Positions 11,510 through 48,767 of a DNA stretch of 64,000 nt are shown here, in pieces. The notes under the pieces were generated by a model. That model was not told where the DNA came from. It worked only from the letters and a program-made list of their open reading frames with translations, and searched no databases. Position 1 is the first letter of the stretch. Every line of letters starts with the position of its first letter. Origin of the DNA: an uncultured Christensenella sp. (GTDB lineage Bacteria > Bacillota > Clostridia > Christensenellales > UBA1242); assembly GCA_948466185.1 (NCBI GenBank), contig CAOJZM010000001.1:22742-86741 (forward strand), written 5' to 3'. A program made the position numbers and the translations under genes.

Positions 11510-12970
11510 TTATTCATTTCCAGTTTTTTCATTATTATTTCTATTACTCATAAGTTGCACTTTTAAAACATCAGCTCGCTTTATACTATACTTCGAAAAT
11601 AATGTGATTGAGAGTGCAAGTGCAATAGAGCAGCCACATAGAACAATCAACCCAAGCCCGTTTTGCACCGACATTGCCTGTACCGGCTGAGTGCTGTCAA
11701 ACTTGATTATATCAAGCAGCAATCCTATAATAAGCAGGGCAAAAGAGTTTGCAAGATTATAGGTAAAAGTGAAGAAACCCGAATACGCCCCTGCATTGTT
11801 TTTGCCTGTTTTATACATCTCCATAGTAACCACATCTGCATACATTGCGAAAGGTAAACTATACATTGCTCCTGCCCCGAGGCCGCAGAAGATAATGCAA
11901 GGAAGAACATAGAAAAACATGGTTTCTGGGGTTGCATAAGAGCGGAATAAGAAGGTCAAAAATGTGAGTGCTATTCCGAACACGATAAGAGATAAAGAAA
12001 TTATGAGTGCCTGTTTTTTATCAAGTCTTTTTGAAATATATATCCAAAGTGGCTGTGAGGTTATCGCCCCGCCAAACATTGCAATAAGCAGGATTGAAAT
12101 CTGAGGGCTTGAAAAGTGATAACAATATGTGAAAAGGTGCATACCCACAGAAGTAAGAAAAGCGGAAGCAATCAAAGCGGCAGAATAACCAAGAATCACC
12201 GAACGAAAATCTTTCTTTTTTAACACTTCAAAATATCCCGAGAGTAACGCCCCCAAATTGAATTTTTCCTTATGAAAAGACAACAGCATTATTCTGTTTT
12301 GTTTTTGAACCTGCTTTATGCTTCCAAGAACTGTTATAAATCCACAAATAAGCACAAGTGCTGAATTGATATACGCTATATTTATATACCCTTCTTGACT
12401 GAATTGAGTCTGAACGCCAATAGAAATTGACGGCATGAAAAAATACATTAAAATACTTGGCATAATCATTCCAATTATGCTAAACATGGTTTTGAAACTT
12501 TGTACCTTACTCTGCTCATTATAATCAGGAGCAAGATCAATACCTAGGGCTGAATATGGTGTGCTAAAAAAAGTGTTGGCTGTTTCAAGGCAAAGCATGG
12601 TAATTATTAACCATATAAATTTACCCGCTTGTCCCAATGATGAAGGCATAGTCCAAATCAGGAGATTTAAAATTGCAATCGCAAAACAGCCAAAAAACAT
12701 GTAGCCAAGCCTACGTCCAAAAAAGCGGTTTTTTGTATTATCTGAAAGATAACCTACCAACGGGTCACTTACGCCGTCCCATAATGACGCAATTGCCACT
12801 GCCACTCCGACAAGAGTTCCTGATATACCCATTACGCTTGTCCCAAAAAACATTATAAAGTTGGAAAGGGTATTGCCCATACAGCCATACCCCAGTGCCC
12901 CTGCACCATAACTTAACTTTGTACCAAAAGGCAACTTTTCCCTGTTTTTCACTAAGATATGTTTATGCAC
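11510..12970 (-). CDS. MFS transporter, glycoside-pentoside-hexuronide (GPH):cation symporter-like
   Basis: 486 aa, about 12 TM. Signature GYLSDNTKNRFFGRR after TM2 is typical of the MelB/GPH family. Confidence 0.75.
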   Translation of the reverse strand: MHKHILVKNREKLPFGTKLSYGAGALGYGCMGNTLSNFIMFFGTSVMGISGTLVGVAVAIASLWDGVSDPLVGYLSDNTKNRFFGRRLGYMFFGCFAIAILNLLIWTMPSSLGQAGKFIWLIITMLCLETANTFFSTPYSALGIDLAPDYNEQSKVQSFKTMFSIIGMIMPSILMYFFMPSISIGVQTQFSQEGYINIAYINSALVLICGFITVLGSIKQVQKQNRIMLLSFHKEKFNLGALLSGYFEVLKKKDFRSVILGYSAALIASAFLTSVGMHLFTYCYHFSSPQISILLIAMFGGAITSQPLWIYISKRLDKKQALIISLSLIVFGIALTFLTFLFRSYATPETMFFYVLPCIIFCGLGAGAMYSLPFAMYADVVTMEMYKTGKNNAGAYSGFFTFTYNLANSFALLIIGLLLDIIKFDSTQPVQAMSVQNGLGLIVLCGCSIALALSITLFSKYSIKRADVLKVQLMSNRNNNEKTGNE

Positions 12971-20055: not shown

Positions 20056-20117
20056 TTCTTTTAATTTTACTTAACATTTCTTTCAAAACTTAACATTTAC
20101 ATAATTAAGGAGGAACT

Positions 20118-20688: not shown

Positions 20689-20717
20689 TAAAAAACAGGC
20701 AGCGTTGCCTGTTTTTT
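20689..20717. terminator. Bidirectional terminator (HD gene / hydrogenase)
   Basis: aaaaa-ACAGGCA-gcgt-TGCCTGT-ttttt. Overlaps the hydrogenase stop codon. Confidence 0.75.
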
Positions 20718-22251
20718 AGTCCCCTAAGATTTCACTTTTATCAAAATAGCTTGTGTGAAGCAAACTTTCACTAAACGGCGAAAGTGGCTTTCCTAAAAAC
20801 TGCAAATACAATTTCTTTATATCCTCATTTTCATGGCAGAAGCGAGTTTTGCTTTTAGGGTCGAGGCTATAAAGTCCTTTTTGTCGTGCTTTATACGCCT
20901 CTTCCAAATATGTCGTATTTGATTTTGGTTGACCGCCGCCAGATATACACCCACCCGGGCAGGCCATAACCTCAACAAAATCATATTTCTCGCCCTGTTG
21001 AATTTTCGAGATTAATTCACGCGCATTTGCAGTGCCAGCAACAACCGCAACCTTTAATGAGGTGTCACCAATTTTAACCGTGGCTTCCTTTATCCCACCA
21101 AGCCCTCGGACCTCTTGAAATTCCACTTTATCTAGGTTCTTCCCTGTAAGCAAAAAGTTGGCTGTTCGCAGTGCCGCTTCCATCACTCCGCCAGAGTTGC
21201 CAAAAATCACACCCGCCCCGCTGGCACGACCAAGCGGGTCATCATAATTTTCTTCTGACAAAGTATCAAAGTTAATATTCTCATCTTTCAACCACTTTGC
21301 AAATTCCCTCACCGTCAGAACGTAATCCATATCTCTTAAACTTGAATTATTATTGTACTTCGCACTTACGTTCATCTCGCTTCTTTTTATTTCCGCCTTC
21401 TTGGCTGTGCATGGCGTAATTGCAACTGATACAATTTTATCAACTGGTATATTCATTTTGCTTGCAAAGTAGGTCTTTATTATTGCCCCTTGCATAAGTA
21501 TTGGGCTTTTTGCAGAAGAAAGCTTTGTCAAAATTTCTGGATAAAAGGTTTCAGCAAACTTGACCCACGCAGGACAACAGCTGGTAAATTGAGGCAGATT
21601 CTTTTTTGATTGAATTCTCTCTATAAGTTCACTTGCTTCCTCCATTATAGTCAAATCCGCCCCAAAAGTTGTATCAAAAACATAATCTGCCCCGAGTTTT
21701 CTTAATGCGGCAACAATTTTGCCTTCACACAACGAGCCCGCATCAAAACCGAATTCCTCACTGACAGACACCCTTATAGATGGAGAAGTTTGGAAAATAA
21801 CAATTTTATCTGGATCAGCAAGTGCATTTTTGACATTTTCTATATCATTTTTAAAGTTTATCGCACCCGTAGGACAAGCCAATGTACATTGCCCACAATC
21901 AATACAAATTGTGTTTTCTTTTATCTTTTTAGGATTAAAATATCCACATACAGCCTGTTGATTTTTACAAATATTCTTACAATTTCCACAGTTTACACAT
22001 AAATCAGGATTGCGTGCAATGGGATAGCATTCCTCATTTACCTTGACATACACGCAGTCGTCATCATATTCCTCATCTTTTTCAATAGTTTTGGCTTGTA
22101 CTGGCTCAGCCTCCTCTGGCTCTATTAATTTAAAAAATGATTTAGGGACAAAGCAATCAGGACAAGTCCACGAATTTGGAAGATTAGAAAACAAAACACC
22201 ATTTTTTTCTTCGTCATAGACATATTCACATATTTCACATTTGTAATTCAT
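20716..22251 (-). CDS. [FeFe]-hydrogenase with N-terminal rubredoxin-like domain and two ferredoxin-type 4Fe-4S motifs
   Basis: Start moved to MNYKCEICEYVY (AGGAG SD). Rubredoxin knuckles CEIC...CPDC, clusters CVNCGNCKNIC and CIDCGQCTLACP, and H-cluster motifs TSCCPAW, TPCTAKKAE, ACPGGCISGGGQP. Confidence 0.9.
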   Translation of the reverse strand: MNYKCEICEYVYDEEKNGVLFSNLPNSWTCPDCFVPKSFFKLIEPEEAEPVQAKTIEKDEEYDDDCVYVKVNEECYPIARNPDLCVNCGNCKNICKNQQAVCGYFNPKKIKENTICIDCGQCTLACPTGAINFKNDIENVKNALADPDKIVIFQTSPSIRVSVSEEFGFDAGSLCEGKIVAALRKLGADYVFDTTFGADLTIMEEASELIERIQSKKNLPQFTSCCPAWVKFAETFYPEILTKLSSAKSPILMQGAIIKTYFASKMNIPVDKIVSVAITPCTAKKAEIKRSEMNVSAKYNNNSSLRDMDYVLTVREFAKWLKDENINFDTLSEENYDDPLGRASGAGVIFGNSGGVMEAALRTANFLLTGKNLDKVEFQEVRGLGGIKEATVKIGDTSLKVAVVAGTANARELISKIQQGEKYDFVEVMACPGGCISGGGQPKSNTTYLEEAYKARQKGLYSLDPKSKTRFCHENEDIKKLYLQFLGKPLSPFSESLLHTSYFDKSEILGD

Positions 22252-22382
22252 GTTTTCTCCTATCGTATACCTATATTTTAACATTTTTTACCCAAAATAC
22301 AAATTGTTTTAAAAATAAAATATTACCTAAATATATTTGCTTTTTATTAATAATTTAGGTTAAAATAGAGCAAGGAGAAAAT

Positions 22383-23332: not shown

Positions 23333-23361
23333 ATAAAAAGTGTCCATTGACACTTTTTTAT
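23333..23361. terminator. Bidirectional terminator
   Basis: aaaa-AGTGTC-catt-GACACT-ttttt. Confidence 0.7.
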
Positions 23362-24425
23362 TTTAGTTCAAAAAATTTATTGTTAAATAAAACACTTGAA
23401 TGATTTGGCTTTTCCTTTTTAGCAAGTTTATGATAATGCTGTGCACGTTTTTTATTCCCCTTATAAAAATAGCAAACGCAAAGCTGTAAATTAGGGGTAA
23501 AATTATACGCATCCAAATTTACAAATCCTCCATTTTTTAAATTGGGTTTAATATTTTTTGCCTGTTTAAACCAATATATTGCATCGTCATAACGCTTAAG
23601 TTCAATAAAAATGGCACCAACTTCACATAGAATTTCCGCCCTAGGTTTTGCCATACAAAAACTTCTAAAAAGAGATCTTAAAGCTTTCTCATAGTCCTTT
23701 TTGCTTTCATAACATTTTGCAAGACACAGACAACTGTCAATATTATTTTCTATCCATCCTAAATGCGAGTCAAGAAAACCAGTAAAATTTTTAATCGCAT
23801 CATCGATATAACCATTGTAGTAAAGTTCTCTTGCATAATAAAACTGTTGTCTAGGTGAAAGCCTATTCCCTGATGCAATATAGCTTTTGTATATCTCTAA
23901 ATTTCGACTCTTCGATTTTACTTCAAGTTTTGCATGAAAAATATTTATATCAAGAAAAGCCTTCTTTCCAGATGTTATTAAAACTTCATGCACCGGGTCA
24001 TGCCACATAAAGTTTTTACTACGCCTAACAATCCGCTCACGATAAAAGCTAAATTCAGGTTTATAGTTATCGTTGTATGCCGTGACATATTTTAAAAATA
24101 GTACGTCGTATTCGGATTTTTTTGACAATTTAAAATCCCAAATTCTCATTATATCATCTTCAAGTATAATATCATCTGCATCAAGCCACATTATAAAATC
24201 ACAGGTGGCCTTTGAGAAAGAATAATTTCTTGCTTGTGAAAAATCATTATTCCAATTAAAATTATAAACATTATCAGTGTACTTATAAGCAATCTCCATA
24301 CTTTTATCGCTGGAACCAGTGTCAACAATAACCACTTCATCAGCAAATTTTTTGACACAATCAAGCATTCTTTTTAAAACTTTTTCTTCATCACGCACAA
24401 TCATACACACACTAATCGTATTCAT
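23358..24425 (-). CDS. Family-2 glycosyltransferase with C-terminal TPR repeats
   Basis: ISVCMIVRDEEKVLKRMLDCV...VIVDTGSSD...LDADD (GT-A DxD). The C-terminal half has TPR-like repeats (YYNGYIDDAIKNF, KDYEKALRSL, YDDAIYWFKQA, GNKKRAQHYH). Confidence 0.8.
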   Translation of the reverse strand: MNTISVCMIVRDEEKVLKRMLDCVKKFADEVVIVDTGSSDKSMEIAYKYTDNVYNFNWNNDFSQARNYSFSKATCDFIMWLDADDIILEDDIMRIWDFKLSKKSEYDVLFLKYVTAYNDNYKPEFSFYRERIVRRSKNFMWHDPVHEVLITSGKKAFLDINIFHAKLEVKSKSRNLEIYKSYIASGNRLSPRQQFYYARELYYNGYIDDAIKNFTGFLDSHLGWIENNIDSCLCLAKCYESKKDYEKALRSLFRSFCMAKPRAEILCEVGAIFIELKRYDDAIYWFKQAKNIKPNLKNGGFVNLDAYNFTPNLQLCVCYFYKGNKKRAQHYHKLAKKEKPNHSSVLFNNKFFELK

Positions 24426-24738
24426 AATTTACTCCTATTTTAAATTATGAATAATAAAATATATTTGTTAAAATTAATTTTTTCATATAATATTAATTAT
24501 TTTTTTACTTTTTTTTGATTTTTTTATTAATTTTTAATTATTATTGCATTAAATAATATTTTTAAATTTTAATATGTGTTTTTTGCCCTTTATTTCTGGA
24601 TAAAAAAAGTTTTTTATTAATGTATATTTATATATATTTTATTTATTATATATTATATATATTGTGCATTTTATTTTGAATTTTGTCGTTTATGTGATAA
24701 AATCTTTTTATCAAAATAAAAAGGTTTGAGGTGAAATT
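24426..24738. other. 313-bp extremely AT-rich divergent intergenic region
   Basis: I count about 38 G/C in 313 nt (~12% GC). Contains TA-rich runs (tatatatttatatatattttatttattatatattatatatatt). A possible promoter is TTGAAT (24676-24681), 16 nt (TGa), TAAAAT (24698-24703). Confidence 0.8.
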
Positions 24739-27700
24739 ATGTTGAAAATAAAAAATATTTTTAATTCACTTTTGGTATGCTTTGTGATGCTGGGATGTTT
24801 CGGTCTTGGCATTTCTTTATCAAGCCCATTGACTGCAGAAGATAATTTCACTGCAAAAGCAGACTTAACAAATTATGATTCGGTGCAAAACACGCTTCCT
24901 GAATTTGTTAAGCTTGAAAATACCGCACGAAAATCTTTTGAAAATTATGTGTTTCTTACAAACAATAGCAGTGAAATAGATTTGAAAATCGCCGCCGATG
25001 AAAAAATGTTGATTTCTCACAAAACACCTGCTGGAATCATCGATGGTCAAAACTACGCATATATTCCTTCGTCAGACCTCAATATAGAGGATGACCCAAC
25101 CACACCTGATATTGATGAATCAAAAACTGAGTATTATTATTTTTCATTTTCAAACTCACTTTCCCTTTATTATAATCTTACAAACAAGGATATTGAAAAT
25201 GGAACAGAAGGTTTGGATAATATATTAAATGGTGAAAATATCGATTTGTTTGCAACATCAAAAGAAACCGCCTTCCCTATTCAGACATATGATTTCACAC
25301 CTGAAAAATTTGAAATATCATTTAAGCTGAACACCGCAATTTCAGGAGATAAGATAATCAATGGACATACTGTAAGCTTAAAAAAGGAAGGCTGCTACAC
25401 ACTTGCCCTGCCACTTACATATTACCATACCACAAACAATGGTCAAACCTTCTCAACCACTTCTGAAGTAATTTATTATACTTTCATGTTGTTTGACTAC
25501 ACTACTTATTTTGACTCAGCTTCCGAACTTCCAACCTCCAGCATGCAAAACACCACTGTTTCACACTTAACCAACAGTGAGTCACATTCAACATATTATT
25601 TCTACAATTATGATAAAACAAACTTGCCAGCCTTTTCGTACCAACCTAGAAAGGAACAAATATCTGTGCAGTTTACTGACACAGACTCAAACTCTTTCAC
25701 AAGAATAATTGAATTTAATCCATTTACAAACATTATTACCCAAAAGGATGAAAATGGAAACGAAACATCTGATGACAAATTATTTGCGACTTACAACTCA
25801 GCTGACGGGAAAATAACTTTGACATTTAATGACCTTGGTGAATATGACATAAGTTATACATTCTTGTATGTGTCTCAAAACACTGTTTACAAAATTCCAC
25901 TTACAGCAAAAAGACAACGCTTATACAACTATGGTTATCAAGCCTTCTACACCGATTATTCAAAGCTTGACCCTAATACAAACACAACTATTCCTCAGGA
26001 ATTTAAAAATATAAGTGAAGACAAAACAAAATTCCTTAATTCTGCAGATGTTACTTATCTTCTTTCAAACAATCAACATGTTTCCACAACATATGACCTT
26101 GATACACTCAAACAAGATGCAGTCGATGCAATCAACTCCTCTGATGTCAAACCAGTATCAACCAATCAAACACCTGTTAAATTTTCTTCAAATGCAGCCA
26201 AAAAAGGTTCAAAAAAATATACCTTAGATGCCGTGACTGGCGAATTTGACAATGGAAGCATATATGACGGTTCCAACATAAATGATGCTGGCACTTATCT
26301 TATCGTATTAGATTACTCCTACAACAACTACCTTTCAACAAGTGGAACTGCACAAAGCTCCTACCATCATTACCAAATTTTTTATTTCACAGTTGAAAAC
26401 AAAACACCAAGCGTGACAGTCGTTGATGAAAAAGGACAAAACATTCACACAAAGGGATACACAAATAAAAGCGTATTTATCGTTGATGATTCTGCTGCCA
26501 CACTCTTTGACGCTAAAGTAAGAATTACCCTTACCGCCCAAGACTATTTGACCGGAAAGTACGTATTTCCTGAAACCAATATAGAAGACTTTAAAATGGG
26601 TCAGTACGGAATAACCTATTACGATGGTGATATGGCAGTGCCCGGTGATAAGTTTAATATAACTGACGAATCTGGAAAAATTACTACTTTATATCAAACT
26701 GGTGTTTATATTGACGCAAGCAAAGCAAATGCATATCGCAATGCACATTATACAATAAATATATACACCGAAAATTCAAAACTTCCATCAAGCAGAAGTT
26801 TTACAATTGATACAAATGGAATAACAAATCTCAAAGCTCAAAATGTACGCTATTCAACCAGTTCAACTTACAGCATTGTTTCTGATGTGAACGGTGGAAA
26901 AACCAACCAGCCAATCATCTTTTCATGGGACAATAAGATTAGTGGAGCTCAAACATACGGATATTATAAATATTTCGAGCTTAAATCCACCCAGTATTAT
27001 AAAGGCGGAGATGACGATTCTTTATTGCTCTACTCCTTGATTGGTTCACAAGAGCCATTTGATATACTTCCAGTTAATGCTTATTTGGACCTTAATTCAA
27101 GCAGCAATCAATGGACAAACTACGTCAATGCTGTAGATTATAAAACAATTGTTCCTTCAACCTACGTTCGTGATCAAGCGGGTGTTTATGTTTTTGAAGT
27201 ATTTGACGAAGCCGGCAATTCAAATTTTGAACTTTTCTTTATAGACAACACCTCTCCTCTCTTCGTTAAGAAGATAGAGTCACAATCTTCAACCATTCGT
27301 TCCATTCTCTCAAGCAACGACACAATCACAGTATCAGAAGTTTACACAGCCTCTATTGAATGGGCTAACTACAAAGGTATATACCTGCAAGAGCTTTCAG
27401 AAACTGGAAGATTAAATCTGTATAAGTCATTTGTCAATGACAAACTTGACAAGGATGAAAATGGAAGAGTTGAACTGTTAAAGAATAAAATTGATGAATT
27501 TTTAAGTGATAATAATGTCACCACCATTTCTGGTATATCTGGTTCAACCCCTAATCCTGAGATTCTCCCTTCCTATAATGCACAATATTTAAAAGTAAAA
27601 GTTTCAGACAATTTCTACTTAAAAGACTCAGAATCCTCGAAATACACTGAACAAACGGGTAATAGTTACACAATAGAATTCTTTACCGGAACCGGAGAAG

Positions 27701-30700
27701 ACAAAAAAGAAAAAGAAGGCACCTATAAATTTTTATTAAGAGATGAATCCAACACAAATTATAGCGACAACGAATATGGCTTCTTAAATTATCCATCAAG
27801 TTTCCTTACATTAAATGTTACATCAGACGCGTCTCAACTTGAAGTCCTTCTTGAAGGAAATCCTGTAGATAAACAGGGATACACACTAACTGGAAACTTC
27901 TATCAAAAAACTGAAAATGATGTTACGTATTACAGTAAAACGCAAGATGAAGGATTTAACACCGAATCCAAACTCACCTACAAATATGCTTACAATATTC
28001 CTGTAAAGACAGAAAAAGCACTTAGAATCTCATATATTCCTGTGGCTGATAATGGAAGTCGAATTAAAAACATTAAAGTTTTATATTACGGGTATGTAAA
28101 AGCTTCAAAAACCATAACTGCTTATAATGACGGAAAACCTTTTGATGCAACAGCTTGGTATTATACTCTCAGTGACACGGTCACAAGAGAAATTGACATT
28201 TTCAACTATTCACAAACTGAAAGCTACGAAGAAGGCGTAAAGAGGGATTACCTACTCACCTTCTCTGGCTCGGGCATCGCGGAAGCAGGAAAATATGTTA
28301 TTATTCGAACTTACTTTGAAGATTCAACTATCGATAAATATGATTACTATGAAAGAGACTTAACCCTTTATGTCGACAGATATAACGTCATATCTGCACA
28401 AGAGAATGTCACAACTGACATCAATGGCAGCACAACAAGTTCTCTTGAAAGCATAGTTGGTGGAGACATCCTTATTTCAATGTACTCAGGAACTGACCAA
28501 CAAGCATTACAGGTTGCATTCCCAAGTTACAATCCTAACACTCACCTTAATTCAGGATCTTTCTTTACAAAAAATATTTTTGATGAAAACTTAGACACAA
28601 TAATTACCACAAAACCTTCCACAAATAAGCTCCCTCTAAGTGTTTATATTCCACAATATAAATACACTGAAAATTACGCTTATGATTACGCAAATAACTC
28701 ATATTCAGTTATTGAAAACAATACTCTTTCACGCCTTGGAAACTCCATTATTGAGGTGGTGGAGAAACCCGACGAAACCGTCTACAATCTTATTGTTGAA
28801 GGTATAAAAGTTGGAACCTATTACACTCTTGAAGAAGCTGAAGCAGCAAGAGCAAAAACAGATATAGAAGAATATAAACTTAACGCTTTTATCAAATTTA
28901 AATCTACATCTTCAAATAAAACCTATTACTATAAAACAAACGGTACCACCAACGGAGGCTATCTCAATTTCTATAAAGTATCAACCATTGATGAAACTGT
29001 TCCAGCAGATGCAGAGCCTTGTGTATTTAGTGAAACTGGTATTTACAATGTGATAATTTATCAGGGTTATTACGGTGGCAATACTGGTGAAGAGGGGTCT
29101 TTCAGAGATTTCTATCGTTTCGCCTTCGAAATACTTGACCCAGAACCTGAGTTCACCATACTCAATGAAAATGGAATTGAACTAAATTCTGTCAATGGAG
29201 ACTATTATACAAACTCGCAGACTATTGAAGTTCAATGGGAGGACTCAACCAGCGAATATATTGCAAACCTAAACCGAAATGTAAATGCAATTGCAATTGT
29301 AAAAGACGATGGCTCTACAGTATTGCTAAAAGACTCAGATATCAAAACACATGGACTTGTTCACTCTTTCACCTTAAACCTCAATGATATAAATCTTTGG
29401 GCAGAAGGCAGATCATTAAGTATAACAATGCAACTTGAAGGTTATACTGACAATCGCGGCACTTTAACAAAAAGAGTTTTTGTGGATTACTCCGCACCTA
29501 TTCAAAACCTTGCAAGGCTTATGGATAATGTAACTAACTCCTCAGGTGTCTTTGGAAGACTCTATCAAGAAATAAATTCACGTCGACTTCTTGACTTTGA
29601 CAGCAATGAAATAGATACATCTGTGTGGACCAACGCAAATTATTTGACTAATCTTTCCAGGGTTAGTTACTCATACTCTGCTTCAAGTGGAGTTATGAAA
29701 TATTACGCTTACAATGTAGAAAAATCCTTCTTCACAGACTTAAAAAGAAGCATTAATGCTGCAGATCCAACCAGCGTACAAAACATCTATTACAACAGAA
29801 TCACTAACTATGCAGATTATATTCAGGTTGATAAAAGTGGATTCTCGGAAATGAACTATACTAATGTTGCATATATAGAGGAAGACGAAGCTGACCTCAT
29901 TCCAAACGATTACTATGAAATTGTGGAAATTGACACTGCTGGCAACATGGTTGTATATGTTGTTCACATATACGAAAAAGATCATCTTGATGCAGGACAA
30001 CAAACATACGCTTTAACCTATGAAAACGCACTCTATAATGGCGACGAATATATAGCAATCCTTGACTCAAGCCTTGAAAATGAAGGTAACATATATTCAA
30101 ACACAGGATTTAAAATCACTTCTCTCAACTATCTTTCAGATTCTTGGGGCATTTACAGGATAACTGTCAATGGAGTGACAAGTATATATATGAATTCTCC
30201 TTGGCTTACAAGCGATGCAAATGATTCATATATCTATCAAATCCGTTCAGTTAATGGGACCTTAACATACACTCAAATTCCATTATCCGACCTATTTGCA
30301 AACATTACATCATCAAAATATAAACATACATTATCGCTAAGCAACAGATATCAAGGAAATCTTGTTACTGTATATATTGGGATAATGGACGCTTCTCTAA
30401 ACACCACAAAGTATTCAGATGAAGCAACAGCAACTTTAAACATCTTCGTTCCAACAAACGAGCAAGCAAATAGTACAACTGAAGCCTATCTCTACCCTAC
30501 TGAAATAAAAATGTATCAATTCTTAACTGTGGATGAAAGCTGGCATCTAATATCAAATATAATCAATTTGACTGGCAATCCATTAAACTGGTTAAGCGAT
30601 AATGATAATATTAAATACTCATATACAAACGGTATACTTTCAATTACAACCTCACTCGCCGCATTCTCAAGCACAAAACTTAAATATGAAATTAAGGACA

Positions 30701-33102
30701 ACTTTGGGAATATAACCTCCGTTATCCAATTGGTGAATGAGGAAACATGCGATGAAATTATAGGTAACGAAACAATTTATGAAAGTCATGAACCTGATTC
30801 AATAACCTATCTCTCCTCAAGTGACATGACTTATCAATATAATCGCCTGCTTTACCAAGTTAAAATCGAAAAGTATAATGGTTCTACCTTCCACGAATTG
30901 TCTGAAAAAGAGTTGAGGGAAGAAAGCATTGTCAAAGGCAACTATCTTAACACCAACATTAATTACTATCGTTTTCAAACAGGTTATGAGATTAATTATG
31001 ACAAGGTTTATAGGATATCCGTATATGAGATCGAATCAAATCTTGAAACTGATCACCCTGTGCGTATTATCAATGTACGACTTTACTACAAACTCCCATC
31101 TCTACAAACAACGGCCACAAAACCTGATAATAATACAATCAAAATTACCGATAAAAATGCCGACATAATAAGCGAACACGGCACACAACGAAATGTAAGC
31201 GTAAGTAAAGATGGCGTAATTTACACGGCAGATGCAACAACAATAAACACCTATTCAAACACTATAACAGTCAACTTTGATGACGGTCAATTTGGTTTAT
31301 CAAATGACAAATATAGTTATCTACAACAGTACCCTTACAGCATCTATTTCAGTGAAAACGGAAAAGATTGGGTAAATATAAACGGTTTTGCATCAAGTGG
31401 ATACAGAATCAACGGAAGCGGCAATTACAAACTTTTAGTAACCTATGATAATACCGAAATCTTTACAAACCTATGCAAAATATTTGATATCACTATAATT
31501 GACTCATCTTCAGTGTTCTATTACATAACCGTTGACGGAAATTTGATTACTAAATCTGATATAAAATATACCGACCCAAGCGGCCGCCAATATTCAGATA
31601 ACTACATTGTCAGTGTAAATTATAACGATAGAAGAGACCGTGTTGATGTTGTGGGTAATAACGAACTTGGTATTTATCCTATTATCTACAAAAACATTCC
31701 AACAGGAACAAATGTCTATATCGAAGTGTATTCCTACTCCAGTGACATATCCTCAGGATTCTTCACAATTATTTATATAGGCGAAACCAGTTCCATTCTT
31801 ACCCTCCTTAATTACGAGGATAGTTCTGGCTCCCCTATCTCACTACTTGGCTCAACCAATGCTACAATTGTGGCAAGTGAAGTGGAAACCGATTTCAATC
31901 GACTTAGACTTTCTTGGACAGAATACTATGGAATAAAGGAAAACACGATAAATATTGGAGTAGAAAAATTATTTAATAACACCTTTGTTAAAGTAGATGT
32001 AAACATTTATTCTAACGGCACAAACAGATATACTTACCTTACTCGTTCTGGAACGTATAGAATAACATTCTATGATTCATGTACACCTGCAAATATTCAA
32101 TCGTTTGGGAATGGAAACTATATAAATCTTGTTCTTCTCAACTCTGTACCTTTCACAGTAACTTATACAGATCCTGAGACAAATGAAACGCTGGTTACCG
32201 AACCTATTAATAAAAGCGTTTATAATGGAAGTGTTCAATTAAACCTTGTCAACCTTTCCTCCTACTTCCAAACCTCTGGTTATCCAGTAATAAAGGTGTT
32301 TAAGGACGGACTTGAATATAATGGCTTTAACTTATCAAATTATATTTACACCTTTACCGAAACTGGTTATTATAGCGTGAAATTTGCAGCAAAAAGTTCA
32401 AGCGGAATAGATGTGAGACAGGAAGAATTTATCTTCTCTATCATAAATAGAAATGAATCTCGTTATGCCTATGAATTTGCTCCTTATTCAAGCTACTATA
32501 TTGAAAAGGTTGTTAAAGATGGTAAAGATATAACCAAAAACTTGATTGCACTTGCAGGTAGCGACTGTGTAACTATCAACAATCAAAAATATCTTTCAAA
32601 ACTGCTGGTATCTTTCTTCGATGAAAGAACAGGGGCGGGAAGATATGTTATAACAGTAAATACTGGTGAGGCAACATACAATACGATAACTGCTACAAAA
32701 TTTTCATTTGGTTTCTGGATCAATCTTACCTCTCCTCCTATCAACGTTTCTATTGGAGAAGGAGGAACAACCACTGGCAACATAAACATAAAATTCAATG
32801 CTTACAACCTCTATGAATCTGTTGGGGATTGCTACATCAAAATTGCATCAGACAGATATGACATCAATGCAGATACACTTGAATCTATTGGTGGAGAAAA
32901 TGCGGGTATAACCATCACACAATCTGGTACATACTACATTCAAATTTACTCAACAAGCAATAATCTTCTCTATTCATATAAAGTTATCAAGACTGACCCA
33001 CTTAACACCTGGGCAATCATAGCGATTGTAATTGGAGTACTTGCCGTTGGCGTTGTAATCTTCATAACAATCAAACTTAGAAAGAGATTGAAAGTTAAGT
33101 AA
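24739..33102 (+). CDS. Giant (2787 aa) secreted, C-terminally membrane-anchored surface protein, predicted multi-domain beta-rich; no recognisable catalytic motif
   Basis: Single uninterrupted 8364-nt ORF with a GAGGTG SD. Signal peptide MLKIKNIFNSLLVCFVMLGCFGLGISLSSPLTA. C-terminal TM WAIIAIVIGVLAVGVVIFITI plus KLRKRLKVK, no LPXTG. The body is N/T/S/Y-rich with recurring G-x-Y-x-[IV]-x-[IVF] ... D-x-(A)GN strand signatures. Confidence 0.85.
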   Translation: MLKIKNIFNSLLVCFVMLGCFGLGISLSSPLTAEDNFTAKADLTNYDSVQNTLPEFVKLENTARKSFENYVFLTNNSSEIDLKIAADEKMLISHKTPAGIIDGQNYAYIPSSDLNIEDDPTTPDIDESKTEYYYFSFSNSLSLYYNLTNKDIENGTEGLDNILNGENIDLFATSKETAFPIQTYDFTPEKFEISFKLNTAISGDKIINGHTVSLKKEGCYTLALPLTYYHTTNNGQTFSTTSEVIYYTFMLFDYTTYFDSASELPTSSMQNTTVSHLTNSESHSTYYFYNYDKTNLPAFSYQPRKEQISVQFTDTDSNSFTRIIEFNPFTNIITQKDENGNETSDDKLFATYNSADGKITLTFNDLGEYDISYTFLYVSQNTVYKIPLTAKRQRLYNYGYQAFYTDYSKLDPNTNTTIPQEFKNISEDKTKFLNSADVTYLLSNNQHVSTTYDLDTLKQDAVDAINSSDVKPVSTNQTPVKFSSNAAKKGSKKYTLDAVTGEFDNGSIYDGSNINDAGTYLIVLDYSYNNYLSTSGTAQSSYHHYQIFYFTVENKTPSVTVVDEKGQNIHTKGYTNKSVFIVDDSAATLFDAKVRITLTAQDYLTGKYVFPETNIEDFKMGQYGITYYDGDMAVPGDKFNITDESGKITTLYQTGVYIDASKANAYRNAHYTINIYTENSKLPSSRSFTIDTNGITNLKAQNVRYSTSSTYSIVSDVNGGKTNQPIIFSWDNKISGAQTYGYYKYFELKSTQYYKGGDDDSLLLYSLIGSQEPFDILPVNAYLDLNSSSNQWTNYVNAVDYKTIVPSTYVRDQAGVYVFEVFDEAGNSNFELFFIDNTSPLFVKKIESQSSTIRSILSSNDTITVSEVYTASIEWANYKGIYLQELSETGRLNLYKSFVNDKLDKDENGRVELLKNKIDEFLSDNNVTTISGISGSTPNPEILPSYNAQYLKVKVSDNFYLKDSESSKYTEQTGNSYTIEFFTGTGEDKKEKEGTYKFLLRDESNTNYSDNEYGFLNYPSSFLTLNVTSDASQLEVLLEGNPVDKQGYTLTGNFYQKTENDVTYYSKTQDEGFNTESKLTYKYAYNIPVKTEKALRISYIPVADNGSRIKNIKVLYYGYVKASKTITAYNDGKPFDATAWYYTLSDTVTREIDIFNYSQTESYEEGVKRDYLLTFSGSGIAEAGKYVIIRTYFEDSTIDKYDYYERDLTLYVDRYNVISAQENVTTDINGSTTSSLESIVGGDILISMYSGTDQQALQVAFPSYNPNTHLNSGSFFTKNIFDENLDTIITTKPSTNKLPLSVYIPQYKYTENYAYDYANNSYSVIENNTLSRLGNSIIEVVEKPDETVYNLIVEGIKVGTYYTLEEAEAARAKTDIEEYKLNAFIKFKSTSSNKTYYYKTNGTTNGGYLNFYKVSTIDETVPADAEPCVFSETGIYNVIIYQGYYGGNTGEEGSFRDFYRFAFEILDPEPEFTILNENGIELNSVNGDYYTNSQTIEVQWEDSTSEYIANLNRNVNAIAIVKDDGSTVLLKDSDIKTHGLVHSFTLNLNDINLWAEGRSLSITMQLEGYTDNRGTLTKRVFVDYSAPIQNLARLMDNVTNSSGVFGRLYQEINSRRLLDFDSNEIDTSVWTNANYLTNLSRVSYSYSASSGVMKYYAYNVEKSFFTDLKRSINAADPTSVQNIYYNRITNYADYIQVDKSGFSEMNYTNVAYIEEDEADLIPNDYYEIVEIDTAGNMVVYVVHIYEKDHLDAGQQTYALTYENALYNGDEYIAILDSSLENEGNIYSNTGFKITSLNYLSDSWGIYRITVNGVTSIYMNSPWLTSDANDSYIYQIRSVNGTLTYTQIPLSDLFANITSSKYKHTLSLSNRYQGNLVTVYIGIMDASLNTTKYSDEATATLNIFVPTNEQANSTTEAYLYPTEIKMYQFLTVDESWHLISNIINLTGNPLNWLSDNDNIKYSYTNGILSITTSLAAFSSTKLKYEIKDNFGNITSVIQLVNEETCDEIIGNETIYESHEPDSITYLSSSDMTYQYNRLLYQVKIEKYNGSTFHELSEKELREESIVKGNYLNTNINYYRFQTGYEINYDKVYRISVYEIESNLETDHPVRIINVRLYYKLPSLQTTATKPDNNTIKITDKNADIISEHGTQRNVSVSKDGVIYTADATTINTYSNTITVNFDDGQFGLSNDKYSYLQQYPYSIYFSENGKDWVNINGFASSGYRINGSGNYKLLVTYDNTEIFTNLCKIFDITIIDSSSVFYYITVDGNLITKSDIKYTDPSGRQYSDNYIVSVNYNDRRDRVDVVGNNELGIYPIIYKNIPTGTNVYIEVYSYSSDISSGFFTIIYIGETSSILTLLNYEDSSGSPISLLGSTNATIVASEVETDFNRLRLSWTEYYGIKENTINIGVEKLFNNTFVKVDVNIYSNGTNRYTYLTRSGTYRITFYDSCTPANIQSFGNGNYINLVLLNSVPFTVTYTDPETNETLVTEPINKSVYNGSVQLNLVNLSSYFQTSGYPVIKVFKDGLEYNGFNLSNYIYTFTETGYYSVKFAAKSSSGIDVRQEEFIFSIINRNESRYAYEFAPYSSYYIEKVVKDGKDITKNLIALAGSDCVTINNQKYLSKLLVSFFDERTGAGRYVITVNTGEATYNTITATKFSFGFWINLTSPPINVSIGEGGTTTGNINIKFNAYNLYESVGDCYIKIASDRYDINADTLESIGGENAGITITQSGTYYIQIYSTSNNLLYSYKVIKTDPLNTWAIIAIVIGVLAVGVVIFITIKLRKRLKVK

Positions 33103-33107
33103 AACAC

Positions 33108-33139
33108 AAAAAAGCGAAACCTAAGTTTCGCTTTTTTTA
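33108..33139 (+). terminator. Terminator of the giant gene
   Basis: aaaaaa-GCGAAAC-ctaa-GTTTCGC-ttttttt. Confidence 0.8.
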
Positions 33140-33157: not shown

Positions 33158-33185
33158 TTGACAAATCCCCCCCCCGCTTTATAAT
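33158..33185 (+). promoter_or_regulatory. Near-consensus sigma-A promoter with a poly-C tract in the spacer
   Basis: TTGACA (33158-33163), 16-nt spacer aatCCCCCCCCCgctt, TATAAT (33180-33185). Confidence 0.55.
33167..33175 (+). repeat. C9 homopolymer
   Basis: Nine consecutive C, counted from ...acaaatcccc cccccgcttt.... Confidence 0.95.
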
Positions 33186-33213
33186 GGGCTATACCAAGTT
33201 TATGGAGGGAATC

Positions 33214-34401
33214 ATGATAAAAAATAAAAAGAAAAAATTTTTAAGAGCAATTTCAACTATTTTGGCAACAGCCTCAATCTTTACATTAGCCTCAGGAGTC
33301 GCAGCTGGCTGTTCAAACGAATCCGAAGCAACAGAACAGCCAACCAAAGTCGAAATATTTTACAAGGATAGAATCGAACAGGATTTCGATCAATTGCAAG
33401 ACTTATTAGCACACTTAATTGAGTATGATGACATTTCACAAGACGAAGAATTTATTATTTTGCAAGAAAGCATTGATAATTTCTATAATAACATAGAAAA
33501 GACAGAAAAAAGACCAAACATAATAACTCTTGGCACTAAGGCAAGTGGCAAAGAAGAAATGATTAAACTGGATAAGATCGACGAGACAATTGATACATTA
33601 ATCGAGAAATATGAAGATTATGACTACTGCTTAAAAGAATGTAAATGTTCAATTTTAAACAGTAAAGCAATAATTTATTACAACACTTTACAGCAAGGTT
33701 ATGATAAATATTTAGAAAACAACAAATATAGAAAATGTTTTGAATATTATGCTAGCGCCCCCCTTGGTTACTTGGGACAAACAGAGATAAAAGCCCAAAC
33801 AATTGAATCCGTAAGTCAAAAAGGTGAACAGTTCTCAAAAACAAGCCAAAGCGTAATATATAACGAAAATTTTAATTTATTGGACAGTGTTAGTATTCAA
33901 GATTGTCATGGAGTTTCTTTTTACATGGCAAAGAAATCCGTTGATTCCTCGAAAAATTTCCCCTATTTTCAGAATACTACAACATATGCTGCAACAAATT
34001 ATAAATTATATGAAACTAAAACGGGTTCAAGTTGGGGAAACTGCATACCCGAGCCTCAACAACGGCAAATAGATCAAATTGGTCAACACTTCTTTCGTGC
34101 AACAAAGCAACGTCCAGTTGAAATTTTTTATTCAGAAAGTAAGGGTTTTGTTGCTGAAGTCGAAGGCGTTATGCATGGTGCAGGTCCTAGTATATTTACT
34201 TTTAATATTGATGACAAGGGAATGCTAACAGACCTTGATGAAACGACATTAACAAAAAATGGTGACATTTGGTTTAGGAACTATAAAGTTTTATCTGGAA
34301 TAACAAAAAAAGAATACACTAAAACCTCATTAGAAATTCTTAACAAATATACTGAACTTGCAGAGAAGATTAATAACAAAACTGATGAAACTCAACAATA
34401 A
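33214..34401 (+). CDS. Hypothetical lipoprotein (395 aa)
   Basis: Start moved to ATG 33214 (GGAGGG SD at 33204-33209), because the track start 33184 lies inside the -10 box. MIKNKKKKFLRAISTILATASIFTLASGVAAG|CSNE is a lipobox. Confidence 0.7.
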   Translation: MIKNKKKKFLRAISTILATASIFTLASGVAAGCSNESEATEQPTKVEIFYKDRIEQDFDQLQDLLAHLIEYDDISQDEEFIILQESIDNFYNNIEKTEKRPNIITLGTKASGKEEMIKLDKIDETIDTLIEKYEDYDYCLKECKCSILNSKAIIYYNTLQQGYDKYLENNKYRKCFEYYASAPLGYLGQTEIKAQTIESVSQKGEQFSKTSQSVIYNENFNLLDSVSIQDCHGVSFYMAKKSVDSSKNFPYFQNTTTYAATNYKLYETKTGSSWGNCIPEPQQRQIDQIGQHFFRATKQRPVEIFYSESKGFVAEVEGVMHGAGPSIFTFNIDDKGMLTDLDETTLTKNGDIWFRNYKVLSGITKKEYTKTSLEILNKYTELAEKINNKTDETQQ

Positions 34402-36299: not shown

Positions 36300-36665
36300 T
36301 TAGCCAAATGGCACAAAAGGTTTGCCCATCAGAGCACTAGAAACAAAGCCTAATAACAAATCAATTGCAAAAAGAACAACAGCAAATATCACGACAACAG
36401 CGAGAACAACACCCGTTCTTTTAACAACATCAGTAAATGTTGGCCAGGTAACTTTTTTAAGTTCAGAAACGGTCTCCTTGGTTTTTTTGGAAATGGTGTG
36501 TTTCTTTTCCTTTTTCTTTTTATCCTTTTTGTTGTCCTTGCCCGCTTTTTTATCCTGTTTATTTTGGTCTTTTTTAACTGGTTCAGACTTTACTGCTGCT
36601 TCTGACGAAAGATTTGCAGTAGAGTTTTCTACTTCTTCTGTAACTAGTTTTGACTTTTTAGACAT
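36300..36665 (-). CDS. secE: Preprotein translocase subunit SecE with long Lys-rich N-terminal extension
   Basis: Start at MSKKSKLVTEE (ATG 36665, AGAGGGG SD). The conserved C-terminus ELKKVTWPTFTDVVKRTGVVLAVVVIFAVVLFAIDLLL is SecE-like. The longer track ORF (to 36857) is an out-of-frame overlap with rpmG. Confidence 0.8.
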   Translation of the reverse strand: MSKKSKLVTEEVENSTANLSSEAAVKSEPVKKDQNKQDKKAGKDNKKDKKKKEKKHTISKKTKETVSELKKVTWPTFTDVVKRTGVVLAVVVIFAVVLFAIDLLLGFVSSALMGKPFVPFG

Positions 36666-36678
36666 ATTAACCCCTCTA

Positions 36679-36840
36679 CTATTTGGTTTCTTTGTGAACA
36701 GTTCTCTTTCCACAACGTGAGCAGAATTTTTTGATTTCAATTCTCTCTGGGTTTGATGCTGAGTTTTTAGATGTTGCATAATTCCTTTCTTGACACTCAG
36801 TACATGCAAGAGTAACATATTTGCGTTTTGGTGCTGCCAT
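36679..36840 (-). CDS. rpmG: 50S ribosomal protein L33
   Basis: Absent from the ORF track (53 aa). My translation is [60 protein letters not shown]. Sits in the expected rpmG-secE-nusG position. Confidence 0.9.
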
Positions 36841-36861
36841 ATTTTTTCTCCTAACAAAAAA

Positions 36862-47327: not shown

Positions 47328-48767
47328 TTAGTTTTCGTGATCTTCAAGAATAATTGTGTGTTCCGCACGTATCTCCACCCCACCAACAAGTGTAGGGTTT
47401 CCCTCAGCGATTAACATTTCATCGCTAGGAGTTGGAGGAGGAACAGGCATGTACTCAGTTTCAATTGCTGAATTTTGCTCTAAAGAAACATCCGCCTCTT
47501 CAGCAAATCCATCGGTCGCTGCATTAGGGGACACAAGAGCAAAGAAATTCACAGCCTCTTCATCCGGAGTCTCCTCCGTTGGTTTCTGCTCGTCCGGCTT
47601 TTCAGGTTTTGGAGCTGGCGCAGTTGGTGTTTCGTCATAGATAATTGGAATTTCTTTTTCAGACTTTTTGTCTGATTTTGCCCCTTCAACAATTGTTTTT
47701 ACGCTTGAACCATATGTGCCAGTGGCTTTCTTCTCGTCTTTCTTCTTCTCATCTTTCTTCTTGTCAGCCTTCTTTTTTGGTTTATCTGCTTTCTTCGCTG
47801 GTTTCTTCTTATCGCCGCCACTTTTACCGCCCTTTCCGGCAACCTTTGGCGCGCCACCTCCCGATTCCTGTGCACCTTCTTCTTTTACCACTGCAACAGA
47901 TTTCTTTTTAGACTTAGCTGATTCAAGTTTCCTTATGGAATCTGTATATTCAATACGTGGTTTTTGCAAAACACTCTTAGGCAGTGGTAACTTTTCAAGT
48001 CCGCCTTTTTTCTCAATTATCTCATCCAGTGTCCTATGCAACTTGGTATAGGCACCTTTTTTGTTTACATCAAGTTTACTTGCTTCTGCTTTCTTTTTAT
48101 ATTCTTCAATGATATCCTTTCCAAGTTCTCCACCATTTGAAAGCACTTTAAGCATTCTCATTATGTAAATTTGTGAGCCAAGATCTGAAATCTCATCAAG
48201 CAGCAATTCGTCATCAATTTGCGACTGCATATATGTTGCTAAAAATGGAACATCTGTGTCTTTGATATTTGTAAGTCCATCAACAAGATTAAATGCCTTG
48301 TAAACCTTTTGTTCAAAGGAGGCATCATAAGGAAGAATAACCTTGGCAACAAAACTACGAAGTGCTGTTACAGGAGGATAGTTGTCAACCACCTCATTGA
48401 CATAAAGCGTTGCACTTGCCATCCCATCTTCAAGAAAATCCACTTCTATCGCAAAATTAAAAGTCTTTTTCATATATATAGCCATTGCGATATAGTAACT
48501 TGGGCTTGCATCAGCAACTTCTTTTTGCATTTTAACAAGATCTCGTTTAATTCTATCTTTGAGGTTATAATTGCCACTGTCGCTCACACTACCAAGTAAT
48601 TTATTTCGCAGTATGATTTGTTTTAAATATTCGTGATAATAGTTTATTTCGACTTCGTCAGTTAATACTTTCCTATCACCCCATGTGGTGCAAGTTTTTA
48701 ACTGTGTTTGTTTGACTTGAGCATCAGCAGCAATACCTTCTAGCTGTTTTTTCGTACGTCTAACCAT
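47328..48767 (-). CDS. Hypothetical protein with folded N-terminal ~290 aa and Lys-rich then Pro/Glu-rich low-complexity tail
   Basis: 479 aa. The tail reads ...GGGAPKVAGKGGKSGGDKKKPAKKADKPKKKADKKKDEKKKDEKK...TPTAPAPKPEKPDEQKPTEETPDEE.... No TM segment. Confidence 0.6.
   Translation of the reverse strand: MVRRTKKQLEGIAADAQVKQTQLKTCTTWGDRKVLTDEVEINYYHEYLKQIILRNKLLGSVSDSGNYNLKDRIKRDLVKMQKEVADASPSYYIAMAIYMKKTFNFAIEVDFLEDGMASATLYVNEVVDNYPPVTALRSFVAKVILPYDASFEQKVYKAFNLVDGLTNIKDTDVPFLATYMQSQIDDELLLDEISDLGSQIYIMRMLKVLSNGGELGKDIIEEYKKKAEASKLDVNKKGAYTKLHRTLDEIIEKKGGLEKLPLPKSVLQKPRIEYTDSIRKLESAKSKKKSVAVVKEEGAQESGGGAPKVAGKGGKSGGDKKKPAKKADKPKKKADKKKDEKKKDEKKATGTYGSSVKTIVEGAKSDKKSEKEIPIIYDETPTAPAPKPEKPDEQKPTEETPDEEAVNFFALVSPNAATDGFAEEADVSLEQNSAIETEYMPVPPPTPSDEMLIAEGNPTLVGGVEIRAEHTIILEDHEN

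Follow-up and report, generated by a model that had tools for sequence, protein, structure and literature searches.

Giant surface proteins built from immunoglobulin (Ig)-like domains are well known, and the protein described here does not represent a new principle in that respect. SiiE of Salmonella, the RTX adhesins of Aeromonas and Marinomonas, and the staphylococcal SasG/Aap are very long, acidic extracellular chains of beta-sandwich domains that consist of recently duplicated, recognizable repeats (BIg, G5-E and others), vary in repeat number among strains, and depend on type I secretion or sortase anchoring. Ebh of Staphylococcus aureus and Embp of S. epidermidis are also of great size, are exported by the Sec pathway, and are held by a single C-terminal transmembrane helix followed by a basic tail; these proteins consist of alpha-helical FIVAR/GA and DUF1542 repeats with a YSIRK signal peptide, and for Ebh, a part in the architecture of the envelope has been proposed in addition to binding. 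Strings of Ig-like domains are also present in the S-layer proteins Sap and EA1 of Bacillus anthracis, and archaeal S-layer proteins have a signal peptide and a C-terminal transmembrane anchor and are glycosylated. Here we analyze a gene from an uncultured Christensenella sp. (Bacillota; Clostridia; Christensenellales; UBA1242) that is located in a 64,000-nucleotide stretch of contig CAOJZM010000001.1 (assembly GCA_948466185.1, positions 22,742 to 86,741), hereafter the window. The gene (positions 24739..33102 of the window, plus strand) consists of 2787 codons plus a stop, without interruption, and takes up 13.1% of the window, as had been noted in a preliminary description of this DNA that was made from the sequence without database searches. 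The encoded giant protein can be characterized as a non-repetitive chain of orphan Ig-like domains, of conserved length, with a Sec signal for export and a C-terminal transmembrane anchor, and it is this combination that is new. We consider it probable that this is a lineage-specific, single-copy core envelope protein of a clade of uncultured low-GC gut Clostridia, functioning as a surface fibril or spacer and, perhaps, in adhesion.

In the protein database, the giant protein has 44 end-to-end homologs of 2761-2957 amino acids (aa), with 32-58% identity, and four more distant homologs of ~2500-2600 aa. The sole name given to any of these is “hypothetical protein [Clostridia bacterium]”, and none contains a Pfam domain; a Pfam search with six other family members, including distant ones, detected no domain either. 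A scan of genome contigs with the single sequence as the query found no relative, but a scan of one genome per GTDB species with an alignment-based query identified 61 loci in species-representative metagenome-assembled genomes (MAGs), all from uncultured Clostridia, Eubacteriales or Firmicutes, obtained from human, mouse, deer, rabbit and other guts. No MAG contained more than one copy of the gene; in three MAGs, it is present as halves on two contigs (L026/L047, L039/L058 and L045/L061). An intact open reading frame (ORF) of 2774-2980 codons occupies the homologous position in 45 other, independent assemblies from different studies. When a hidden Markov model profile of residues 1471-2667 was used to search 1.84 billion representative proteins exhaustively (E ≤ 1e-3), only 219 relatives were detected, of which nearly all the full-length ones were 2440-3190 aa long, and a word-index profile search with the N-terminal segment retrieved a single fragment. 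No relevant publication on giant proteins of Clostridia was found in a literature search. A phage origin of the gene was considered and rejected because a tblastn search against 50,697 phage records produced no match. The giant protein belongs to a closed, unnamed family limited to a clade of uncultured gut Clostridia.

In the alignment of 44 sequences, conservation is even along the chain and indels are few. Nei-Gojobori estimates of the ratio of nonsynonymous to synonymous substitution rates (dN/dS) were 0.06-0.10 in five pairs of closely related species and 0.25 in one; when calculated in windows of 250 codons, the ratio never exceeded 0.6, and the tightest constraint was observed in the C-terminal third of the gene. 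The preliminary description had recommended a search for positive selection; at the 250-codon resolution, none was found, and the gene instead evolves under purifying selection.

The body of the protein is, as described previously, rich in Thr (9.9%), Ser (9.7%), Asn (9.0%) and Tyr (8.7%) and poor in Cys (0.3%, nine residues), and we likewise found no tandem DNA repeats inside the gene. The mature protein has a mass of ~311 kDa and is acidic, with an isoelectric point (pI) of 4.6. Searches of Pfam, NCBIfam and the sequences in the Protein Data Bank (PDB) with the window protein returned no matches at E ≤ 10, in agreement with the earlier statement that no domains could be assigned, and a family profile run against PDB sequences found no match either. 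In particular, Pfam yielded no match at E ≤ 10 to the Ig-like families Big_1/2/3, DUF11, Cadherin-like, HYR, PKD, fn3 and Bact_surface_Ig-like, which include all those (Big_2/3, DUF11, Cadherin-like, HYR, PKD) that had been suggested for such a search. Nor did the Pfam, NCBIfam, PDB and profile searches reveal end-to-end similarity to any characterized adhesin, the type of finding that had been named as evidence against an unassigned surface protein.

Structure prediction places the body in a recognizable fold class. AlphaFold2 (AF2), run with 19-sequence alignments of exact database proteins, covered residues 34-1233 and 1471-2667 (2397 residues). For the first segment (24838..28437), the mean predicted local distance difference test score (pLDDT) was 80.9 and the predicted template-modeling score (pTM) was 0.51, with 77 beta-strands and 8 short helices; for the second (29149..32739), the corresponding values were 85.5 and 0.46, with 83 beta-strands and 9 helices. 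Over both segments, this amounts to 160 beta-strands and 17 short helices; the predicted structure is almost all-beta. The only clearly non-sandwich stretch in the models is a helix-rich insert at residues ~1589-1671 (29503..29751), which encompasses helices H119-132, H137-143, H163-171 and H193-201 of the second model in the DSSP assignment. Within the ectodomain, conservation is lowest and gaps are most frequent in the distal tip, that is, the ~90 first mature residues (~42-130; 24862..25128), with a column conservation of 0.29-0.42 vs 0.5-0.78 elsewhere, gaps of up to 30%, and a lower pLDDT of 58-70.

In Foldseek searches of the PDB at E ≤ 1e-3, the first segment produced 36 matches, mostly to multi-domain chains of the Ig, fibronectin type III (FN3) or macroglobulin (MG) type, along with a few unrelated large assemblies; these included carcinoembryonic antigen (CEA, E 3.9e-9), a mastigoneme, A2ML1, IgG, PirB and Sap. 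The second segment produced 245 matches, among them titin I65-I70 (2.5e-14), contactin-2 (3.3e-14), alpha2-macroglobulins and CD109, the S-layer assembly domains of Sap and EA1, and RTX-adhesin repeats. The Foldseek probability was 1.00 for titin, contactin, CEA, IgG and FN3 receptors, with sequence identities of 6-12% and low global template-modeling (TM) scores, which are expected because the chains are multi-domain and flexible. No enzyme fold was among the matches of either segment, and a search of BFVD, a library of viral structures, with the first segment found only generic Ig/FN3-rich phage proteins. At the level of models and Foldseek matches, the ectodomain accordingly has the Ig/FN3-like beta-sandwich fold class, which is defined by tandem Greek-key sandwiches of 7-9 strands and ~90-110 residues. 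Segment-wise structure prediction followed by Foldseek had been proposed for this protein, and both the confident all-beta models (pLDDT 81 and 86) and the matches to tandem Ig/FN3/MG-type chains bear out the chain of diverged beta-sandwiches envisaged there.

That proposal was derived from a strand signature recurring in the sequence, and all ten motifs quoted in its support are located where they had been reported. The signature contains “G-x-Y”, in which the Gly and Tyr residues are invariant or at least 90% conserved among the 44 sequences (G518/Y520, G815/Y817, G1184/Y1186, G1434/Y1436, G2228/Y2230, G2438/Y2440, G2543/Y2545, G2634/Y2636 and G2730). Each motif inside the modeled segments opens a predicted beta-strand of 8-11 residues; TGIYNVIIYQG (residue 1433) and SGTYYIQIYSTS (residue 2729) fall outside these segments. 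Such strand starts match the tyrosine-corner F-strand of Greek-key sandwiches, and the invariant G-x-Y, placed where a late strand begins, is reminiscent of the D-x-G-x-Y-x-C “tyrosine corner” found in Ig domains of the I-set and V-set. Two of the motifs combine the strand with a D-x-AGN element. In AGVYVFEVFDEAGNS (residues 814-828; 27178..27222), the invariant G-x-Y strand is accompanied by a D-x-AGN turn, and G815, Y817, D823, A825, G826 and N827 are invariant in the 44 sequences; the motif maps to strands E782-790 and E795-802 of the first model. In DYYEIVEIDTAGNMVVYVV (residues 1724-1742; 29908..29964), which forms a second D-x-AGN strand pair, Y1726, E1727, E1730, D1732, A1734, N1736 and Y1740 are invariant, and in the second model, this motif falls on strands E255-261 and E267-274. 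Throughout the protein, Gly, Tyr, Phe, Trp, Pro, Asp and Asn account for most of the invariant residues. When 140-residue windows of the family alignment were compared with each other using hhalign, the sole match was between residues 516-586 and 1432-1495 (84% probability), and therefore, the modules are not detectable duplicates of one another. The models, hence, support a body that is a long chain of diverged, all-different Ig/FN3-like beta-sandwich modules which, at 7-8 strands per module, would number roughly two dozen.

The two ends of the protein carry signals for its export and anchoring. The hydrophobicity scan detected exactly two hydrophobic segments, one at the N-terminus and the other at residues ~2757-2778. 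In 43 homologs, the N-terminal sequence “M.K.KK(L/I)FNS” followed by a hydrophobic core is conserved; because of this conservation, we prefer ATG 24739, which follows a ribosome-binding site (RBS; GAGGTG, 24728-24733) with a spacing of 5 nt, over the start at Met17 chosen by the gene caller (database protein P0001, 2771 aa). Residues 1-41 (24739..24861) have the features of a Sec signal peptide, namely, a Lys-rich n-region, an h-region of ~20 residues, and (A/S)-x-A at residues 39-41, which is conserved in the N-terminal alignment of 44 sequences. A cleavable signal peptide had been recognized previously and is confirmed as a conserved Sec signal, but the site assigned to it, LTA|EDNF (residue 33), differs from the conserved AxA, and cleavage after A41 (AKA|DL) is predicted to be more likely than cleavage at LTA|ED. 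Genes for an S26 signal peptidase, SecA and SecE are all located inside the window. The SecA has all the canonical domains, including the C-terminal SEC-C motif. The SecE (36300-36857, minus strand; 185 aa) has a long N-terminal extension preceding the conserved 57-residue core (residues 127-176), and the length of this extension varies among relatives (110-179 aa called).

At the C-terminus, the residues in front of the helix, KTDPLN, include a juxtamembrane motif, (D/E)-P-L-N (residues 2753-2756; 32995..33006), in which N2756 is invariant and P2754 and L2755 are at least 90% conserved, followed by the predicted transmembrane helix (~2757-2778; 33007..33072; conservation 0.78), with A2759, A2762, I2763 and I2776 invariant or nearly so. 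The last nine residues, KLRKRLKVK (33073..33099), form a basic tail, predicted to be cytoplasmic, with the consensus LRKR(Q/L)KVK, which is always found at the very C-terminus and in which R2781 and K2787 are invariant; the C-terminal peptide ends ...ITIKLRKRLKVK. The helix and tail are the most conserved stretch of the giant protein. The C-terminal consensus, “YSYKV.K.EPLN.(F/W)AIIAIV.GV.A....I.ITI.LRKR(Q/L)KVK-end”, is nearly invariant and is kept even at 24-27% identity, and the (D/E)PLN motif is retained in the distant relatives P0046 and P0047. The single C-terminal helix and basic tail reported earlier are, therefore, upheld, and so is the reported lack of LPXTG, SLH and choline-binding signals: a regular-expression search found no LPXTG near the C-terminus (nothing after residue 1851), no Pfam or NCBIfam anchor model matched, and Pfam detected no SLH, CWB2 or choline-binding domains (0 families at E ≤ 10), either in this protein or in the six other family members. 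YSIRK, KxYKxGKxW and CxEQ motifs are also missing from the giant protein. None of the curated models of C-terminal sorting domains (PEP-CTERM, GlyGly-CTERM, GG_III-CTERM and others) reached its cut-off when the C-terminal 43-64 residues were scanned; the best match was to NF041738 (GG_III-CTERM), with 11.8-12 bits vs a cut-off of 22 and an E-value of 0.15-0.18. We read the C-terminus as a true type I anchor in which the helix and tail engage in an additional, conserved interaction. The type I topology had been considered unusual for a Gram-positive surface protein; the anchor is supported, but such topology has precedents in S. aureus Ebh and Listeria ActA, both of which are C-terminally membrane-anchored surface proteins.

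The combination of these features sets the giant protein apart from each of the systems outlined above. It resembles SiiE, the RTX adhesins and SasG/Aap as a very long, acidic, extracellular chain of beta-sandwiches, and an RTX-adhesin tetra-repeat (6xi1) was among its Foldseek matches (E 7e-8), but its modules are all different, its length is fixed, it carries a Sec signal and a C-terminal transmembrane helix, and it matches no Pfam Ig-like family. Assignment to the type I-secreted RTX/Bap proteins, specifically, is contradicted by the conserved Sec signal, the C-terminal helix and the lack of any RTX match in Pfam. With Ebh and Embp, the giant protein shares Sec export, great size and the anchor type, a single C-terminal transmembrane helix and then a basic tail; unlike these proteins, it is almost all-beta and has no YSIRK, and neither a Pfam match to FIVAR, GA or DUF1542 nor any sequence similarity to the Ebh/Embp domains was found. 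It does not group with the serine-rich-repeat adhesins because it has no tandem or low-complexity repeats and no LPXTG; the neighboring genes are housekeeping genes, and the SecA encoded in the window, to which the comparison with accessory SecA2/Y2 systems was limited, is canonical. Like Sap and EA1, it is an acidic core envelope protein with strings of Ig-like domains (Foldseek E 2.4e-9 to 3e-5), but it lacks SLH domains, is 3-4 times larger and has TM-scores of only ~0.1-0.16 to these proteins, so that a lattice would be suggested by fold likeness alone. The signal peptide and C-terminal transmembrane anchor are as in archaeal S-layer glycoproteins, but the host here is a bacterial monoderm. 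The best Foldseek matches, titin I65-I70, contactin-2 and CEA, share 8-10% identity with the giant protein, which has no conserved Cys pairs; this resemblance is at the level of the fold class and provides no evidence of common descent. In architecture, then, the giant protein is comparable to the giant Ig-like fibrils and, in its mode of anchoring, to Ebh, whereas none of the sequence-based comparisons assigned it to any of these families.

The gene occupies a conserved genomic position. The order nucleoside hydrolase (+), a glycosyltransferase family 2-tetratricopeptide repeat gene (GT2-TPR, -), the giant gene (+), a variable slot, and rplA-rplK-nusG-secE-rpmG (-) is maintained among relatives, with GT2-TPR divergent and directly upstream in 42 of the 48 loci and rplA-rplK-nusG-secE convergent downstream in 38 of the 43. 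The preliminary description viewed this region as a discrete cell-surface island between core genes; given the conserved flanking order, it is rather a syntenic core position. Median identities to the window are 81% for rplA, 83% for rplK, 76% for nusG, 50% for GT2-TPR, 47% for the nucleoside hydrolase and ~40% for the giant protein; the arginyl-tRNA synthetase (ArgRS) relatives cluster at 66-69% identity. Three distant homologs that we examined are located in other contexts, and no partner gene common to the distant homologs was identified, the genes upstream of P0045 and P0047 being unrelated to each other and to those in the window. The giant gene and GT2-TPR share a divergent, very AT-rich intergenic region of 313 bp (24426..24738), which contains low-complexity AT repeats and is the presumed promoter region, including the RBS; across 42 loci, the homologous spacer is 185-448 bp long. 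A promoter consensus scan of this region produced matches not above the level of shuffled sequence. Six nucleotides after the stop codon, there is a bidirectional intrinsic-terminator hairpin (33108..33137), with a 13-bp stem between A6 and T6, indicating that the giant gene is monocistronic and forms its own transcription unit.

The neighboring GT2-TPR gene (23358..24425, minus strand) encodes a 355-aa protein with Pfam Glycos_transf_2 at residues 5-101 and TPR at residues 263-295. It had been counted among the surface components, a view not borne out by its sequence: the hydrophobicity scan predicts no transmembrane segment, and among solved structures, the closest relative is the glycosyltransferase domain of Listeria GmaR (E 1.6e-24), followed by the peptide glycosyltransferase SunS of Bacillus (5.8e-10), both of which act on protein or peptide substrates. 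The best NCBIfam match is also SunS, with 43 bits vs an equivalog cut-off of 350. This protein has the layout of GmaR-like protein O-GlcNAc transferases, namely, a GT2 catalytic domain at the N-terminus, TPR repeats behind it and no transmembrane segment, but at 355 vs 637 aa, it is about half as long as GmaR and has neither the linker nor the antirepressor domain of the latter. Flagellin receives GlcNAc from GmaR, whose TPR part has been proposed to recognize the protein substrate (PMC9638930). Because its closest solved relatives are GmaR and SunS, the neighbor is a plausible protein glycosyltransferase. It possibly modifies the giant protein, to which it is linked by adjacency only; its substrate could, alternatively, be flagellin or another protein.

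From the observations above, we infer the export, cleavage, extension through the wall and role of the giant protein, as follows. The 2787-aa precursor would be exported by the Sec pathway and cut by type I signal peptidase after the conserved AxA at residue 41, and the single C-terminal helix would then keep the protein in the membrane, the invariant RKRxKVK tail being cytoplasmic according to the positive-inside rule. The ectodomain would consist of about two dozen non-identical Ig/FN3-like modules, each with a “G-x-Y” F-strand, and one helical insert. The membrane-proximal modules may cross the wall, and the remainder would project as a fibril, with the variable N-terminal tip as the outermost part; a typical beta-sandwich spans ~4 nm, so a fully extended chain could reach a length on the order of 100 nm. 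The role would be that of a structural surface fibril or spacer, perhaps with adhesion in addition, and the protein might be glycosylated by the GmaR-like neighbor. Fixed length, unique modules, single-copy core status and low dN/dS favor a structural fibril, spacer or scaffold over a classical variable adhesin.

Several points weigh against this interpretation. It is supported by sequence and predicted structure, and the organisms are uncultured. The very low dN/dS, the fixed length and the lack of variation in domain number are atypical of host-binding adhesins and speak more for a structural role than for adhesion. The conservation of the transmembrane helix and tail exceeds what a plain stop-transfer needs. 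The connection to GT2-TPR is an adjacency in a place where every gene is syntenic; the glycosyltransferase is missing from this place in 6 of the 48 loci and is also missing near the three distant homologs examined. Finally, a pTM of 0.46-0.51 over 1200-residue segments hints at some fixed inter-domain packing, and the models cover only residues 34-1233 and 1471-2667 of the chain.

One alternative is a lattice-forming, S-layer-like coat with a membrane anchor of the type seen in many archaeal S-layer glycoproteins, decorated by the GmaR-like glycosyltransferase, in place of individual fibrils or adhesins. A single-copy core gene of fixed length under strong, uniform purifying selection, an acidic product, a conserved neighbor of the protein-glycosyltransferase type, a pTM of ~0.5 suggestive of defined inter-domain packing, and the Foldseek matches to the Sap and EA1 assembly domains would all fit such a coat. 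The latter matches, however, reflect generic Ig-like chains, given that their TM-scores are as low as 0.09-0.16 and that titin and contactin rank at least as high; furthermore, at 311 kDa, the protein exceeds the known bacterial S-layer proteins severalfold in size, Pfam and NCBIfam detect no SLH, CWB2 or other wall-binding module, and an outer lattice would be poorly served by an anchor in the membrane, underneath a thick Gram-positive wall. We regard this alternative as unlikely. A different view of the C-terminus would take (D/E)PLN, the helix and the basic tail as a new tripartite sorting signal cleaved by a sortase- or exosortase-like enzyme, leaving the protein covalently attached to the wall or released. 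The layout, a short motif followed by ~22 hydrophobic residues and a terminal Arg/Lys cluster, is that of the LPXTG, PEP-CTERM and similar signals, the motif persists in relatives at 24-27% identity, and there is the weak, sub-threshold GG_III-CTERM match. Nevertheless, no curated sorting model was satisfied, no LPXTG-like motif occurs near the end, and we saw no sortase-like gene adjoining the giant gene. Moreover, sorting signals are normally common to several substrates, but in 1.4 Mb of related loci, which comprise gene neighborhoods only, no other, non-homologous ORF with a PLN-helix-RKR end was detected; and few other parts of the protein are as well conserved as the helix and tail, which is unusual for a discarded signal. 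This scenario thus appears quite improbable.

Among the matches of the modeled segments, the alignments of ~1000 columns with A2ML1, alpha2-macroglobulin, CD109 and complement C5, at E-values down to 5e-11, bring up a membrane-anchored, alpha2-macroglobulin-like protease trap or, more generally, a hidden enzymatic or toxin domain. The TM-scores of these matches are 0.08-0.12, and shared strings of beta-sandwiches suffice to explain them; no A2M, thioester or enzyme domain was found in Pfam, there are only nine Cys residues in total, and the invariant residues are mostly of the kinds typical of structural cores. We rejected the thioester/alpha2-macroglobulin identity because the CxEQ motif is missing, and consider a function of this kind highly improbable. 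That an artefact of assembly or a pseudogene in decay should account for the long ORF is practically inconceivable. The source is uncultured, MAG-type sequence, and some homologs are split over two contigs, but 45 independent assemblies contain the intact ORF in the same genomic place, free of the frameshifts or stops that the preliminary description had listed as signs of an artefact; in addition, dN/dS is 0.06-0.25 over the full length, and an RBS and a terminator are present. The intact orthologs, the even conservation and the low dN/dS exclude not only an artefact or a pseudogene but also a fast-evolving contingency adhesin. A membrane-anchored surface fibril or spacer, accordingly, remains our preferred interpretation.

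The gap between the giant gene and rplA ranges from 115 to 3659 bp and is filled by unrelated genes across the loci. In the window, it contains a lipoprotein-like ORF (33184-34401; 405 aa as listed). The listed ATG 33184 is inside a -10 box, and the likely start is ATG 33215, with an RBS, GGAGGG, at 33204-33209; from there, the product begins with MIKNKKKKF and contains a lipobox-like AAGC. This ORF matched nothing in Pfam or NCBIfam and has no homolog in any related locus. Upstream of it stands a perfect sigma70-type promoter (33158-33185; TTGACA, 16 nt, TATAAT), with a C9 tract in the spacer (33167-33175). Co-transcription of the giant gene with the lipoprotein gene is not supported, given that the giant gene has its own terminator and the lipoprotein-like gene its own promoter; the latter gene is non-conserved cargo with a C9-spaced promoter. 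The same design (TTGACAAAT-C9-GAG-TATAAT) is present in locus L003 (19452-19480), upstream of an unrelated 90-aa membrane protein, and in L056, a C9 run (20069-20077) between TATAAT-like and GTCAAG sequences precedes, by ~70 nt, a minus-strand gene for an unrelated secreted repeat protein of 394 aa. Runs of at least eight C or G occur six times in 1.4 Mb of loci plus the window, and three of the six are in the variable slot. The arrangement has the look of a phase-variable promoter that is conserved while its surface-protein cargo is exchanged. In L067, a gene for a membrane protein of the KwaA family (Kiwa defense system) is found in this slot (11607-12461).

Elsewhere in the window, the minus-strand gene at 20716-22284 encodes an [FeFe]-hydrogenase that carries a rubredoxin-like domain at its N-terminus along with ferredoxin-type clusters; only L036 and L062, the nearest relatives, have it in this position. 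In L062, the locus of P0002 and the closest relative, a serine recombinase, a CI-like repressor and a HicAB pair are encoded upstream of the hydrogenase (1-5900), a region that looks like an integrated mobile element and is absent from the corresponding place in the window. Three other ORFs in the window contain no Pfam domain, at 62014-63957 (+, 647 aa), 47328-48767 (-, 479 aa) and 872-1768 (-, 298 aa), the last of which has an N-terminal transmembrane or signal segment.

The clade in which the giant gene resides is found widely in the guts of humans, mice, ruminants and rabbits; it has no cultured member and no annotated surface structure. In each genome, the gene takes up ~8.4 kb at a fixed length under strong purifying selection; being of fixed length, strongly constrained and family-less, the giant protein is probably a major determinant of the cell build or of surface contact in these bacteria. 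One might go further and regard the protein as the element that defines the envelope of this lineage, in the form of a membrane-rooted, wall-spanning scaffold or an anchored, glycosylated coat of archaeal style, with its two dozen unique modules serving as a fixed-length ruler and its invariant transmembrane helix and tail docking a conserved membrane or cytoplasmic partner. We deem this extended reading unlikely but, if it is true, the cell surface would be physically tied to the cell interior, unlike the case of a passive adhesin. The roughly two dozen confidently modeled, sequence-orphan Ig-like domains could seed new domain families, and the protein offers a test case for a membrane-anchored protein crossing the Gram-positive wall. 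As a lineage-specific marker or antigen, it may also be of use for detecting, sorting and enriching these bacteria.

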